DNA from: Candidatus Enterousia sp.
Lineage (GTDB): Bacteria; Pseudomonadota; Alphaproteobacteria; Rs-D84
NCBI GenBank assembly: GCA_045587125.1
Contig: JAZNBN010000023.1
Span: forward strand, 879 to 64,878
Reading direction: 5' to 3'
Length of the DNA: 64,000 nucleotides
This document shows, in pieces, positions 17,538 to 40,208 of this stretch. The translations under genes and the position numbers were made by a program. How positions within the stretch are numbered: position 1 is the first letter of the stretch; each line of letters opens with the position of its first letter. The notes beneath the pieces were generated by a model. It was given only the letters and a program-made list of their open reading frames with translations, was not told where the DNA came from and did not search any database.

Positions 17538-17643
17538 AAAATAAATTAGAATGATTTAGATACACGCAGCGCCGGCAACGTAGTGTACAAGTGTTACATA
17601 AGTTGCCGGTACCGTGTGTAGATGAATTATTATAATTTATTTT
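17538..17643 (+). repeat. ~106-bp structured palindromic element, type A (GCCGGCAAC stem)
   Basis: AAAATAAATTAGAATGATTTAGAT-stem-CGTAGTGTACAA..TTACAT(A/G)AG-stem'-GATGAATTATTATAATTTATTTT; fills the gap between two convergent stop codons. Confidence 0.9.
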
Positions 17644-19237
17644 ATTCAACCAATTTCCAACCGGTAAACGTATACCCTGGTTTAACTGGGTCGGACGGCA
17701 ATGTAACCGCACCGTCATAGTAGCACATATTCTGGATATGCGCGCCACCATTATCCGGATTCCAATCAATATTGATTGTGTTTGAATTACAGTATGATGC
17801 TGTTACAGGTTTATCTAAATAGGCAAAACTGTAATCATCACCAAATGCAACACCGCTTAAAATCGTATCACTTCCAAATAAATCACTACCTCCGTCCAAC
17901 GCCCAGAAATTTGTAACCCATGGCGAATTTGTTTCAACAAAATTCAATGAAGAAAACATTGCTTTGATAAGTGCTCCCATTTTTTCTTGGTCTGAAACAT
18001 CGTCATTATTATATATAGAAATTAACGATAACATTTCTGGACTTATACTATCAACATGATTATATGAGGCAACCTCTGTAAAAATAATATTAAATAATTC
18101 TGACTTCAAATCTTGTTCACTATTTATTTCTCCATTTTTTGTGCGTTTCATTACCTCTATAACCTTATTCACATTCTTAGTGGATAAATTTTTACGCAAT
18201 TCCTGTTCAGCCTGTGAAACAAAAGCATCAGCATCATCTGCTTTCAACATACTATATATCTCGGAAACATCTTCTAAATAATTCAATAAAATTTTCGCAT
18301 CTTGACTATAAATATTCTCATCAGATTCCATAAATTTCATTAACAATTCAGTAGCAGGCGTGGGCATACCAATCTTGACTAACCTTAGCCATTTATTATC
18401 CCCAGTAATCGTTCTTTGAAAATCTGCATTTGGCAAATATTTTGGATAAACGGTTACAGTTTGCTGATCTGGATGTGGATATCCATCACCCGTCAATACC
18501 CCAGGCGTATTTTCATCATATGAATTTATTGACATTTCAAACAAATACCTCCCCGCATACAAAGCCTGACCAGGTTCAAGCAATTCACAATCATTAAAAC
18601 CATTATCAAACATCCCAAAAAAACCATTCCATTCTTGTCCATGCAATGAACACTCTAAACTCATGTAGATCTCAAATTCTGACGCAGCAGCAACAGGTTC
18701 AAAAGCAACACTTTCTTTACTATACCCCGTGTCGCACCCAAAATCTGCGATTGGACAAACACTTGGGTATGCATTACAGGTGCCGCCAGCAAACTGTTTG
18801 CCGGTGGTTTTGAATTCACTGTGCGTGCAATTATTGGAATGTGGTGGACATTCTACGTTTTTACTGCACGCCAATTCGCATCCCATATAACATTCGTTTT
18901 CACCCACTGCACCCGCGTCTGATGTATAATCTGTTGGACATGTGTTTACACCGTTGTTTTCAGATTCAACAGTAAATTTACCACCCGGACAATATGACCC
19001 AACCGGACATTCGGTACATTTTAATGTTCCATCTGAATTTAATAAATATTGACCGGCACCGCATTCATATTCATTTAACGTCCATGTTGCGATTGTATTT
19101 GCAGTCGCATCGTTTTCGAACACACCAAGCACATCAACCGTACACGTGCCCGCACCGCCGGTAATTATCCCATCCGCAGCGAACACAGGCGACATTAAAC
19201 CCATTACCAACATTGACGATAAAAAATATTTTTTCAT
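17642..19237 (-). CDS. Cys-rich variable surface protein, paralog 1, with C-terminal InlB-B/Flg_new-like repeat
   Basis: Signal peptide; CPVGSYCPGG motifs; C-terminal TLPSDPVKPGYTFTGW; N- and C-termini shared with 38452-39756. Confidence 0.85.
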   Translation of the reverse strand: MKKYFLSSMLVMGLMSPVFAADGIITGGAGTCTVDVLGVFENDATANTIATWTLNEYECGAGQYLLNSDGTLKCTECPVGSYCPGGKFTVESENNGVNTCPTDYTSDAGAVGENECYMGCELACSKNVECPPHSNNCTHSEFKTTGKQFAGGTCNAYPSVCPIADFGCDTGYSKESVAFEPVAAASEFEIYMSLECSLHGQEWNGFFGMFDNGFNDCELLEPGQALYAGRYLFEMSINSYDENTPGVLTGDGYPHPDQQTVTVYPKYLPNADFQRTITGDNKWLRLVKIGMPTPATELLMKFMESDENIYSQDAKILLNYLEDVSEIYSMLKADDADAFVSQAEQELRKNLSTKNVNKVIEVMKRTKNGEINSEQDLKSELFNIIFTEVASYNHVDSISPEMLSLISIYNNDDVSDQEKMGALIKAMFSSLNFVETNSPWVTNFWALDGGSDLFGSDTILSGVAFGDDYSFAYLDKPVTASYCNSNTINIDWNPDNGGAHIQNMCYYDGAVTLPSDPVKPGYTFTGWKLVE

Positions 19238-19257
19238 ATCTCTTGCCCTTTCGTTTA

Positions 19258-19305
19258 TAAAAAATAATCACCTTAATGGCACGACATGCCATTAAGGTGA
19301 TTATT
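19258..19305 (-). terminator. Attenuator-type intrinsic terminator in the 5' leader of paralog 1
   Basis: Perfect 19-bp stem AATAATCACCTTAATGGCA-(5 nt)-TGCCATTAAGGTGATTATT, followed by a U-run on the minus strand about 25 nt before the ATG. Confidence 0.85.
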
Positions 19306-19328
19306 CATAAACGCAAACTGCGTTTGCG

Positions 19329-19388
19329 TTAAAATTTGTTTTTAACTCTCTCTCTCTCTCTCTCTAGATTTCTGCGGAATTTTGCCAT
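19329..19388 (-). CDS. Putative leader peptide MAKFRRNLERERERVKNKF containing (AG)10
   Basis: GAAGGA RBS then ATG at 19388; conserved with 39924-39968; too short for the ORF track. Confidence 0.7.
   Translation of the reverse strand: MAKFRRNLERERERVKNKF
19346..19365. repeat. (CT)10 dinucleotide microsatellite
   Basis: Read directly from the sequence. Confidence 0.95.
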
Positions 19389-19415
19389 TTTTCCTTCACT
19401 TTTCTTGTTATACGA

Positions 19416-19444
19416 ATTTTATCACAAATTAAAAAATCCCACAA
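19416..19444 (-). promoter_or_regulatory. Putative promoter of the leader and surface gene
   Basis: TTGTGG, 17 nt, then TAAAAT with an extended TG; the TGATAAAAT element is conserved at 39996-40004. Confidence 0.55.
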
Positions 19445-19453
19445 GGAGATTTT

Positions 19454-19549
19454 AAAATAAATTAGAATGATTTAGATAAAAGAAAAACGGGAATCGTAGT
19501 GTACAAACGCTACATGAGATTCCCGTTTTAATTTTAGATGAATTATTAT
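19454..19549 (+). repeat. Structured palindromic element, type B (AAAACGGGAATC stem), right end truncated
   Basis: Same termini and core as type A, with a different but still complementary stem; near-identical to 40103-40208. Confidence 0.9.
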
Positions 19550-19560
19550 CCGATAAATAG

Positions 19561-19664
19561 AAATAAATTAGAATGATTTAGATACGCACAGTGCCGGCAA
19601 CGTAGTGCACAAGTGTTACATGAGTTGCCGGCACCGTGTGTGGATGAATTATTATAATTTATTT
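19561..19664 (+). repeat. Structured palindromic element, type A
   Basis: Direct repeat of 17538-17643; overlaps the efp stop codon. Confidence 0.9.
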
Positions 19665-20228
19665 AGCACGTTCTACGTATTCTAATGTTTCCGTATTAAC
19701 AACAATTTTTTCGCCTTGTTCAATAAATAATGGAACCTGAACACGAACACCATTATCCAAAATTGCAGGTTTACCACCACTGCTGGAAACTGTTTGACCT
19801 TTTAATGCAGGTTCTGTTTCTTCAACGGTTGCAATAACTGTCTTTGGCAATGAAATAGATACAGGTTGACCTTCTACAAAGTTTGCCTTGACCGTCATTT
19901 CAGGTGCCAAGAATTTCATCATTTCACCCAAAGAATCAACAGGCATTGTAAATTGTTCATAGTCAGACAAATTCATAAAGAACGCATCTGTGCCATCTGC
20001 ATACAGATATTGACATTCAATATCTTCAACCATTAATTTTTCAACTTTGTCTTCTGCACGCCAACGATCACCACCTTTGTTACCAGAATCAATATCACGC
20101 AGGTCTGCCTGAACAAACGCGCCACCCTTGCCTGGTTTAACCTTGGTAATTGATGTAACAGAATAACGTTTACCATTGTGGGAAATCACCCAACCAACAC
20201 GCATATCATTTGCAATATAAGATGCCAT
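19659..20228 (-). CDS. efp: Translation elongation factor P
   Basis: KPGKGGAFVQ, QYLY.DG, KPAILDNGVRVQVPLFI. Confidence 0.95.
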   Translation of the reverse strand: MASYIANDMRVGWVISHNGKRYSVTSITKVKPGKGGAFVQADLRDIDSGNKGGDRWRAEDKVEKLMVEDIECQYLYADGTDAFFMNLSDYEQFTMPVDSLGEMMKFLAPEMTVKANFVEGQPVSISLPKTVIATVEETEPALKGQTVSSSGGKPAILDNGVRVQVPLFIEQGEKIVVNTETLEYVERAK

Positions 20229-38347: not shown

Positions 38348-38453
38348 AAAATGAATTAGAATGATTTAGATGCACGTGGTGCCGGCAACGTAGTGTACAA
38401 ATGTTACATGAGTTGCCGGTACCGCGGGCAGATAGATTATTATAATTTATTTT
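38348..38453 (+). repeat. Structured palindromic element, type A
   Basis: Homologous to 17538-17643 and in the same position relative to the paralog's stop codon. Confidence 0.9.
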
Positions 38454-39756
38454 ACTCAACCAACTTCCAACCGGTAAATGTGTAACCCGGTTTAACTGGG
38501 TCTGGGGTTGGTAATGTAACCACACCATCATACGTACACATATTTTTGATATGATCACCACCATTATCCGGATTCCAATCAATATTGATTGTGTTGGCTT
38601 CACAAACACCACCTTGTGACACGCCCAATGCACCATACATAACTGCTCGGAAGGCACGATAGTGTACTATACCAAGCCGCAGGCTGTACACACAGTACTC
38701 TGAGCACTCGGACGCACAACTGTCCGCCGATCCGAAGTCGCTGTTGAAGACCCAGGGGGCGGATGTAACCATTTCTTTCGCGCCACCGGCTGCTTGGTAA
38801 CCATCCATTTGACAATAACAATACTGACCGGCGCTGGACGTACTATAATTCTTGTCTGACGATTCGCTGAACGTTACAAAATATTTTGCAAATGTTTCAA
38901 AATTCGCTTCATTTGTCAACCCATCTGTCGAACCAGACATAAAATGTTCAAAGTAATCCATTATAACATTTGCCTTGGCTTGACCATATTGGTTTCTTAA
39001 TTCTTGGCGAAGTTCTTCCATGGTTTTACTACCGTTCGTTACTGCCTCAAGATTATTCATTGCGTATTCAATGGCAGGGTCCGTAGTCGCCTGACAACTC
39101 GCTTTGCCGTATACAACACCATCGGCAAATCCAACAGCATACGTACCGGGACCACTTAATTCACTACTTAGGTCTGCACCAAAATTACTGCCGTCTGGGG
39201 CTATATATGTATAATTTCCATTACTATATTTGATGTAATCAAGCGGTATTAATGGTGTTTGTTCAACCAATGTTATTTCACCATTTATATGATAACCTTT
39301 GTCACAGGCCGTGGCGTAACATGCGTCCGCCCCGTCGCCAAAGTAATCGTTACCGCCGACCGCCGTGGCGTGGGCTATGTTTGCCGTGGCAACTGTACAT
39401 GCGGTGTAGCACTGATTCTGCGCGCCGGCACCGGCATCAGAATTTGGATATCCCGTTGGACATTGGGCGATACTGTTGTCCGCAGTTTCAACCGTATACC
39501 CACCACCAACGCAATATGAGCCCGCGGGGCATGTGGTTTCTGTAACCGATGTGTCCGTTACGTTCAGGTATTCACCCGGGGCCAATGTATAATCTATCAA
39601 ATCCCATGTCGCAATTGTGTTTGCGGTCGCGTCATTTTCATACACACCCAATACGTCAACGGTACATGTATTCGCACTGGTTATTATTTTGTCGGCACCA
39701 AATGCAGGTGCAATAAACGTTCCCATTAATGCGGTGGTTAAAAAATATTTTTTCAT
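38452..39756 (-). CDS. Cys-rich variable surface protein, paralog 2, with C-terminal InlB-B/Flg_new-like repeat
   Basis: MKKYFL signal, TCTVDVLGV.ENDATANTIATW, CPAGSYCVGG, C-terminal DPVKPGYTFTGWKLVE identical to paralog 1. Confidence 0.85.
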   Translation of the reverse strand: MKKYFLTTALMGTFIAPAFGADKIITSANTCTVDVLGVYENDATANTIATWDLIDYTLAPGEYLNVTDTSVTETTCPAGSYCVGGGYTVETADNSIAQCPTGYPNSDAGAGAQNQCYTACTVATANIAHATAVGGNDYFGDGADACYATACDKGYHINGEITLVEQTPLIPLDYIKYSNGNYTYIAPDGSNFGADLSSELSGPGTYAVGFADGVVYGKASCQATTDPAIEYAMNNLEAVTNGSKTMEELRQELRNQYGQAKANVIMDYFEHFMSGSTDGLTNEANFETFAKYFVTFSESSDKNYSTSSAGQYCYCQMDGYQAAGGAKEMVTSAPWVFNSDFGSADSCASECSEYCVYSLRLGIVHYRAFRAVMYGALGVSQGGVCEANTINIDWNPDNGGDHIKNMCTYDGVVTLPTPDPVKPGYTFTGWKLVE

Positions 39757-39841
39757 ATCTCCGTCCCTTCTTTTGTTTTTTGTTGTTTATCTCTTCTTTG
39801 CCACTATCCCTATTCCTGCCTTTGCAGAAGTGACAAGATTG

Positions 39842-39890
39842 AAAAAAAATAATCACCTTAATGGCACAATATGCCATTAAGGTGATTATT
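39842..39890 (-). terminator. Attenuator-type intrinsic terminator in the 5' leader of paralog 2
   Basis: Same 19-bp stem as 19263-19305 with a different 5-nt loop; U8 run on the minus strand. Confidence 0.85.
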
Positions 39891-39923
39891 CAACAACGCA
39901 AACATAGTTTGCGTTAAATGTTT

Positions 39924-39968
39924 TTAACTCTCTCTCTCTCTCTCTAGATTTCTGCGGAATTTTATCAT
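39924..39968 (-). CDS. Putative leader peptide MIKFRRNLERERES containing (AG)9
   Basis: ATG at 39968 in the same position as in copy 1; (CT)9 at 39928-39945; weaker RBS than copy 1. Confidence 0.65.
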   Translation of the reverse strand: MIKFRRNLERERES

Positions 39969-40102
39969 TTTTTGCACTTTTCCCCTGTTATCGGCATTTT
40001 ATCATAATCACCACTTTATTAAAAGCAGAAAATTAAAGATAATGGTATAGATACGCACAAACCCGACATCGTTGGTCGTACAGAAGTATATAATCCTTAA
40101 TC

Positions 40103-40208
40103 AAAATAAATTAGAATGATTTAGATAAAAGTAAAACGGGAATCGTAGTGTACAAACGCTACATGAGATTCCCGTTTTGCTTTTAGATGAATTATTATAA
40201 TTTATTTT
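40103..40208 (+). repeat. Structured palindromic element, type B
   Basis: Near-identical to 19454-19549 and overlaps the secretin stop codon; a degenerate half-copy lies at about 40028-40092. Confidence 0.9.

Follow-up and report, generated by a model that had tools for sequence, protein, structure and literature searches.

The window considered here is a stretch of 64,000 nucleotides (nt) from Candidatus Enterousia sp. (assembly GCA_045587125.1, contig JAZNBN010000023.1), which belongs to a genus with reduced genomes in the order Rs-D84 (excerpts of PMC12306168). The source genome, coded G000 (G and L codes denote sampled genomes and loci), comprises 1,101,867 bases in 26 contigs with 38% G+C. 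On its minus strand the window carries a gene for a 531-amino-acid (aa) surface protein preceded by a compact leader cassette (19237-19453, in window positions as throughout), and this cassette is the subject of the present analysis. Read in the direction of transcription, it begins with a hairpin and T-run, AAAATCTCC-TTGT-GGGATTTTTT (19431-19453), which from its sequence is probably a terminator insulating the cassette from efp. An extended -10 promoter, TGaTAAAAT (19416-19424), was recognised by eye and serves to place the putative transcription start; a two-hexamer promoter scan of the locus did not call this minus-strand promoter. The Shine-Dalgarno sequence GAAGGA (19392-19397) is followed by the ATG (19388-19386) of a leader open reading frame (ORF) with a 7-codon start, ATG GCA AAA TTC CGC AGA AAT CT, which runs directly into an (AG)10 tract (19346-19365; (CT)10 on the plus strand), the variable element of the cassette, reported by Tandem Repeats Finder with 100% matches. 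Beyond the tract lie a small 9-bp hairpin, AACGCAAAC-GCA-GTTTGCGTT (19310-19330), and an intrinsic terminator (19257-19305) of the form found throughout the family, with a 19-20-bp stem, a 3-5-nt loop and a T-run; the hairpin of this copy has 20 pairs (19305-19263). Both were identified by folding and by a terminator scan, which called 2 sites, these two hairpins, against 0.4 expected from shuffles. The ribosome-binding site (RBS) of the surface gene, AAGGG (19250-19246), and its 531-aa ORF, with the ATG at 19237, complete the locus (17642-19250). The tract starts about 50 nt downstream of the -10 element, so that it overlaps neither the promoter nor a -35/-10 spacer, and it lies 108 nt upstream of the surface gene ATG, outside the coding sequence and 5' of the gene RBS.

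The length n of the tract determines where translation of the leader would end. With the present n of 10, the leader reads MAKFRRNLERERERVKNKF and ends at TAA 19331-19329 (whole frame 19329-19388, minus strand). With n of 9, AGT TAA would follow immediately past the tract, and with n of 8 or 11 the frame would continue to the TAA at 19303-19301, 2 nt inside the 5' arm of the terminator. An initial annotation of this DNA had described the promoter, RBS, leader, tract, both hairpins and gene start, had assigned the repeat to a leader ORF rather than to the surface gene or a promoter spacer, and had derived these three frames and stops. All of the elements were found where it had located them, the position of the tract bears out the assignment, and the frames proved correct on re-reading.

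A search of the source genome revealed 16 such cassettes, a family that goes beyond what the initial annotation described and that includes a second copy in the window at 39.9 kb. Each consists of an extended -10, an RBS, the 7-codon leader start, CT(AG)n, the small hairpin and a 19-20-bp intrinsic terminator, the last seen in the 12 aligned copies whose complete intact hairpin lies within the contig. The leader ATG is present in all 16, the extended -10 conforms to TGnTA(T/A)AAT in 15 and reads TGcTAGAGT in the other, the Shine-Dalgarno sequence is GAAGG(A/G) in 12, and a hairpin equivalent to that at 19431-19453 was seen by eye ahead of the promoter in 11. The tract lengths are 13, 7, 8, 9, 8, 10, 9, 12, 7, 10, 9, 6, 9, 6, 9 and 10 units, a range of 6-13; the flanks are almost identical, and tract length is therefore the most variable feature of the cassette. 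The arrangement is not due to chance, because all 16 AG/CT tracts of at least 6 units in the genome lie in this same cassette; no other dinucleotide tract reaches that length, and among simple sequence repeats (SSRs) of di- to heptanucleotide units above the set thresholds, the genome contains only the 16 cassettes and one (TCTGGT)5. An intact paralogue of the surface gene (375-767 aa) lies downstream in all 13 copies with enough sequence, the other 3 being at contig ends. The second window copy (39848-39990, minus strand) has the promoter TGaTAAAAT, a leader ATG at 39968-39966, (AG)9 at 39945-39928, the small hairpin and a terminator at about 39891-39848; its present frame ends immediately past the tract (AGT TAA), and an insert of about 90 nt separates the terminator from the RBS of a paralogous 434-aa surface-protein gene (38452-39756, minus strand). 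At one contig end (G000 C22; L015, n = 6), an acidic coding-like sequence replaces the terminator past the small hairpin, which may reflect a chimeric contig end.

The frame geometry is shared by the whole family. In 16/16 copies the frame with n mod 3 = 2 stops +36 to +42 past the tract, and in the 12 copies with a perfect-match arm defined by script this stop falls between -2 and +2 of where the terminator 5' arm begins. The other two frames stop at +1 and +11/+14 past the tract, 26-39 nt upstream of the terminator. A 3-nt insertion or deletion in the spacer (…AAACATTTAAC… vs …AAACAAATTTTAAC…) leaves the long frame intact, and in one copy with a loop 1 nt longer the long frame ends on the TGA of an overlapping TGAATAA.

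Structure prediction and comparative analysis are consistent with two separate hairpins downstream of the tract. The region 19225-19420 (196 nt) folds with -49.4 kcal/mol (z = -7.2), and none of 200 shuffles folds as well. The same hairpin is predicted for n = 5-14 with the tract unpaired throughout, and an effect of tract length through RNA structure alone is therefore not predicted. RNAalifold recovered both hairpins from 20 leaders, with compensatory double changes in 8 of 23 pairs; the small hairpin shows compensatory AU-to-GC changes in 2 pairs across lineages and is absent in the G012 lineage. The folds contain only two independent hairpins and no alternative antiterminator pairing, and by eye the 3' arm of the small hairpin was not seen to be complementary to the 5' arm of the terminator. 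Against Rfam 15, the region 19100-19700 gave only sub-threshold matches to generic microRNA-precursor hairpins (at most 34 bits, gathering score 74).

Among 200 other genomes sampled from the genus, 16 contain CT(AG)7 or longer, a proportion that is a lower bound because these genomes are metagenome-assembled and repeats assemble poorly. Three architectures were distinguished: leader ORF, terminator and gene in succession (type A), CGCAGAAnnCT(AG)n within a signal-peptide n-region (type B), and a tract within hsdS (type C; Pfam Methylase_S, E about 1e-20). Type A occurs in G002, G060, G068, G072, G120, G171 and G012 and in the metagenome loci L156, L157, L158 and L160. A terminator is present in all of these relatives, and the terminator hairpins of the lineages are unrelated in sequence. 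Across lineages the leader keeps its ATG, its RBS and a distance of 7 codons to the tract, though codons 2-4 differ. Counted from where the 5' arm begins, the long frame stops at -4 in G002, -1 in G060, -6 in G068, +10 in G072 and G120, and +18 in G012; in L157 it stops within the 5' arm, and in G171 it passes through the hairpin. The remaining frames stop no more than 23 nt past the tract, and in 8 of 9 lineages one frame, and only one, extends to the terminator. Dinucleotide shuffling of the spacer in seven lineages produced the combination of one frame reaching the terminator and two stopping at least 25 nt upstream with a probability of 0.10-0.31 per lineage; the real spacers show it in 7/7. 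The long frame is currently occupied in 2 of the 16 copies of the source genome, both with n = 8 and neither being the window copy with n = 10, and in 3-4 of 14 type A copies scored elsewhere. Tract length also differs between assemblies and copies in these relatives: three assemblies of one near-identical locus (mean column identity 95%) give n = 10, 13 and 14, and G171 has two copies with n = 11 and 16.

Matches in metagenome contigs were sought with two patterns; the exact 24-nt pattern gave none, and a looser one gave 9 loci. L159 was rejected as a cassette locus, being an unrelated microsatellite. Outside the genus, the matches (L161, L163-L167) lie in other contexts, and no leader-plus-terminator form was found there.

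From the anatomy, the conserved frame geometry, the covariation seen in both hairpins and the tract lengths that differ among copies and assemblies, we infer leader translation, hairpin termination, antitermination by the ribosome and pausing at the small hairpin. Together these would make each cassette a stochastic ON/OFF switch on transcription, set by n mod 3 through the position of the leader ribosome at the terminator, a reading to which we assign a probability of about two in three. The strong extended -10 promoter would start a short transcript whose first ORF carries (AG)n, and replication slippage, changing n in steps of 2 nt, would move the leader ribosome among three frames. In the two OFF frames the ribosome would stop at +1 or +11/+14, 26-39 nt ahead of the terminator, the 19-bp hairpin would form, and RNA polymerase would terminate about 20 nt ahead of the surface gene RBS. 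In the ON frame (n mod 3 = 2) it would pass the small hairpin and halt on the stop at the base of the terminator 5' arm. The footprint of a ribosome halted at a stop codon extends about 12-15 nt downstream. The ribosome could thus cover most of the 5' arm as the coupled polymerase crosses the U-run, blocking the hairpin and allowing the gene to be transcribed. The small hairpin, to judge from its covariation and position, may act as a pause hairpin that synchronises ribosome and polymerase. By the n mod 3 rule, both window copies (n = 10 and n = 9) are predicted to be OFF. Loss of mismatch repair was considered as a cause of tract instability and rejected, MutS and MutL domains being found in open frames of 845 and 591 aa.

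Several observations weigh against this reading. The 16 genome copies are paralogues that may have been homogenised by recombination, and 16/16 therefore does not amount to 16 independent observations. The element is repeated and the assemblies are of metagenome type, and the tract lengths taken from them may represent a consensus or an assembly error. The assembled contigs of sequencing runs (Logan; best share of words 0.40) are fragmentary and break at 19335-19374; one 180-nt Logan contig spans the tract with 11 gaps and fits a paralogous copy as well as an allele. The leader Shine-Dalgarno sequence is degenerate in 4 of the 16 genome copies, and in the G012-type leaders (L057, L063, L065) an in-frame ATG lies about 6 nt past the -10 TATAAT with no Shine-Dalgarno sequence, so that the leader messenger RNA (mRNA) may there be leaderless. 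The terminator is reached by two of three frames in the metagenome contig L160 and by all three in G012 L063, which lacks about 30 nt of spacer and may be a locked variant; the U-run of G171 is weak (TTTTCGT). That some frame gets as far as the terminator means little alone, as at least one does so in 76-95% of shuffles; only the full pattern is unusual, and the product of the shuffle probabilities (about 1e-5) overstates the significance because the lineages are kin. The pattern that the initial annotation proposed to look for, one frame always ending at the base of the terminator stem, is present in 16/16 copies and, as exactly one frame reaching the terminator, in 8/9 lineages; it fails at L160 and L063. 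The interpretation offered there, a switch governed by tract length modulo 3 with the window copy OFF, stands as the best-supported explanation, given the 16/16 copies and the independent lineages with differing terminators; the accompanying claim to novelty falls to the precedent of Streptococcus gallolyticus pil1/pil3 described below.

Three other explanations were weighed. The tract might act independently of frame as part of the 5' untranslated region, through mRNA structure, processing or stability or through promoter-proximal transcription, with the leader ORF incidental. SSRs can indeed act through RNA structure and RNase III, as at H. influenzae hmw1A (excerpts of PMC12721329), and the weak Shine-Dalgarno sequences of 4/16 leaders would fit; this is nonetheless unlikely, as the predicted folding is the same for n = 5-14 with an unpaired tract, the ATG, RBS and 7-codon distance are kept despite differing codons 2-4, and the three-frame stop arrangement persists in 8/9 lineages. 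Somewhat less likely again is that the cassette is a leftover: an ancestral gene carrying (AG)n in frame would have had its 5' end severed by a terminator and a new gene start, the tract would play no regulatory part today, and the surface gene would be expressed constitutively through read-through or from another source. Such an origin is in keeping with the presence of CGCAGAAnnCT(AG)n in real coding regions of relatives, in the signal-peptide n-region (L044, L045, L048, L050-L053, L061), and with the resemblance of the G060 and G072 leader sequences past the tract to type B coding sequences. A mere remnant is difficult to reconcile, however, with 16 intact copies kept in a reduced 1.1-Mb genome, with the conserved promoter, RBS and ATG, with the covariation of both hairpins and with spacer insertions and deletions that preserve the frame; moreover, in compact copies the U-run is only about 20 nt from the gene ATG, which therefore leaves no space for an additional promoter.

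The least likely alternative is that the leader acts on translation, a ribosome at the hairpin base opening the structure or re-initiating at the surface-gene RBS. The long-frame stop of compact copies, about 65 nt from the gene ATG, would be close enough to suggest this, but the hairpin excludes the RBS and has a canonical U-run, and inserts of about 60-360 nt lie between terminator and RBS in at least 6 of 13 copies. Tolerance of such inserts fits control of transcription and not translational coupling, in agreement with the proposed frame-dependent terminator switch.

The closest known system, with which the mechanism itself is best regarded as already known and the present cassettes as a large additional example of it, is that of the S. 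gallolyticus pil1 and pil3 operons, where a leader-peptide gene contains GCAGA repeats that move its stop codon with respect to a premature terminator (Danne et al., 2014; excerpts of PMC3894217). In that system, leaders stopping at least 28 nt before the terminator give low expression, those stopping immediately upstream of, within or beyond it give high expression, and the model was confirmed by ATG, stop and terminator mutants (PMC3894217). The initial annotation knew of no described system with such an arrangement, though it could not exclude a precedent, and its proposal of a new mechanism does not hold. The two systems share the succession of promoter, SSR-bearing leader ORF, intrinsic terminator and structural genes, the dependence of the leader stop on repeat number, with the stop far upstream in the OFF or low state and next to, inside or past the terminator in the ON state, and a connection with surface structures of a gut-associated bacterium. 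They differ in the repeat, a dinucleotide (AG)6-23 here and a pentanucleotide (GCAGA x 13-23) in S. gallolyticus; in the ON frames, one of three in 8/9 lineages here, whereas both out-of-frame changes lengthen the leader in S. gallolyticus; in the additional small hairpin, conserved in most lineages here; and in scale, with 16 switches for one paralogous family in a 1.1-Mb genome of a Gram-negative alphaproteobacterium compared with two pilus operons in a Gram-positive organism. The S. gallolyticus system has been proven genetically; the present one is predicted from sequence. No sequence relationship connects the two, and the present system looks to have evolved independently. A full-text literature search found no second organism with leader-peptide and terminator phase variation besides S. 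gallolyticus; papers citing the "attenuation-like mechanism", as far as their titles and the first lines of their abstracts tell, mostly concern S. gallolyticus, other Gram-positive bacteria or are reviews, and none presents a second organism there.

In trp and pyrBI attenuation, the leader ribosome trailing RNA polymerase decides whether the terminator hairpin forms. The trp type is also described in the discussion of the S. gallolyticus study (excerpts of PMC3894217). As in pyrBI, the present cassettes would need no separate antiterminator helix, and the mutually exclusive antiterminator and terminator helices of the trp type were not encountered, no 2:3 pairing being apparent by eye or in the folds; the input to trp and pyrBI is metabolite supply, as charged transfer RNA or uridine triphosphate, whereas here it would be a heritable change of frame. 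Classical phase variation by SSRs within ORFs, of which Neisseria opa is an example, is represented in the genus by type B and shares the CGCAGAAnnCT(AG)n tract, an outcome that depends on frame, and an association with surface or secreted proteins. In the window, by contrast, the tract is parted from the gene by stops in all frames and by the terminator, and the protein sequence would never be altered. Phase variation through premature termination between promoter and gene is also known from invertible DNA, cwpV being one such switch that controls leader termination. Others operate at C. difficile flgB and, via Rho, at E. coli fim (excerpts of PMC12360218). They rely on site-specific inversion by a recombinase without leader translation, in contrast to the replication slippage and reading frame proposed here. 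At H. influenzae hmw1A an SSR is likewise transcribed in the 5' leader of an adhesin gene, but the effect of its heptamer repeats is graded, independent of frame and exerted through an RNA hairpin and RNase III (excerpts of PMC12721329).

The surface proteins themselves form a larger family, with about 37 tblastn matches in the genome, 24 of them without a tract in the 800 nt upstream. The 13 paralogues next to cassettes belong to a single Cys-rich Flg_new family and have a signal peptide and a conserved N-terminus. The 531-aa protein of the window carries a signal peptide, is Cys-rich in its N-terminal part and has a Flg_new repeat at its C-terminus (PF09479; E = 1.8e-6, 28.4 bits with a cut-off of 27), beyond which Pfam and NCBIfam returned nothing; the ESM Atlas gave a lead of 0.81 to a Flg_new cluster, below the level that counts, and a search of genome contigs with the protein found no relative. 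The neighbouring genes, efp, ppa, dnaN, an AsmA-like gene, a secretin gene and a class II aldolase gene, indicate a Gram-negative host.

Upstream regions were read for 14 of the 24 matches lacking a tract, and 13 of these are preceded by another kind of structured leader, about 250 nt long and occurring as two sequence variants (loci outside the window, L147-L151, e.g., G000:C10:94450-94950 and C8:46400-46900). Its common form, found in 10 of the 13, has the promoter TTTGATAAAAT, several hairpins, its own terminator and an RBS, and contains CCTCCTGACC twice, allowing alternative pairing with GGTCAGGAGG. Rfam gave this leader only a sub-threshold match to sRNA-Xcc1 (36 bits, gathering score 53). 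A conserved upstream ORF was dropped as a candidate, having been found in only 5/13 by the set rule, and the second leader is therefore left as an RNA element; it may be an undescribed attenuator or riboswitch-like leader of the same gene family.

At least 16 surface-protein genes are thus probably each switched on and off at random by an (AG)n leader attenuator. A wider and more tentative picture, to which we would give slightly less than an even chance, is that of a combinatorial "phasome" of at least 16 independent leader-ORF attenuators, each ON in one frame out of three and perhaps with a pause hairpin synchronising ribosome and polymerase, which would display varying subsets of the family of about 37 matches, the rest of the family being under the second structured leader. 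It would have arisen within the genus from in-ORF (AG)n tracts uncoupled by a terminator, and would be the first of its kind outside the Gram-positive bacteria and the first on a genome-wide scale. The only demonstrated case of leader-peptide and terminator phase variation so far is a pair of pilus operons in one streptococcus. The present findings suggest that the device evolved independently in uncultured, genome-reduced gut Alphaproteobacteria, 16-fold per genome and across species with different terminators; if this is true, it is a general design and not a curiosity. It would switch a gene without changing the protein sequence and would tolerate insertions between switch and gene. For annotation, SSR surveys confined to ORFs and promoter spacers would overlook such loci. 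In Candidatus Enterousia-like bacteria, the system suggests that a large family of surface proteins is under strong pressure from the host or from phages.

The type B loci of relatives (L044, L045, L048, L050-L053, L061, L152, L153, L162, L163) carry CGCAGAAnnCT(AG)7-22 in the 5' coding region of genes for secreted proteins, encoding a signal-peptide n-region segment, ...ETRRTLERERE.... Judged by their sequence, they represent ordinary in-ORF (translational) phase variation and are a likely evolutionary source of the leader ORF. The sequence ...AATCT(AG)6-8 also occurs in the type I restriction-modification specificity genes hsdS (L020, L037, L038 and L041 in G007, G192, G167 and G064), where, from sequence, it fits the already-known kind of phase-variable hsdS. 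Before (AG)n, the 5' flank CGCAGAAnnCT keeps its nucleotide sequence in every context seen, whether leader, coding region, hsdS or intergenic, including other genera (L164-L167).

Some of the inserts between terminator and RBS (window 39760-39848; G000 C10, C16 and C17) bear terminal inverted repeats, e.g., TTGTCATTGCGAG...CTCGCAATGACAA, and the 13-nt insert end occurs 61 times in the genome at up to one mismatch. A further hairpin element, in which the 22-nt loop, TCATGTARCRYTTGTRCACTAC, is conserved while the 11-12-bp stems vary, has 22 matches in the genome, 5 of them on the minus strand of the window (17580-17601, 19496-19517, 19602-19623, 38390-38411 and 40145-40166). Each surface gene has such a hairpin just 3' of it and each leader cassette has one upstream, as if they marked the boundaries of a unit.

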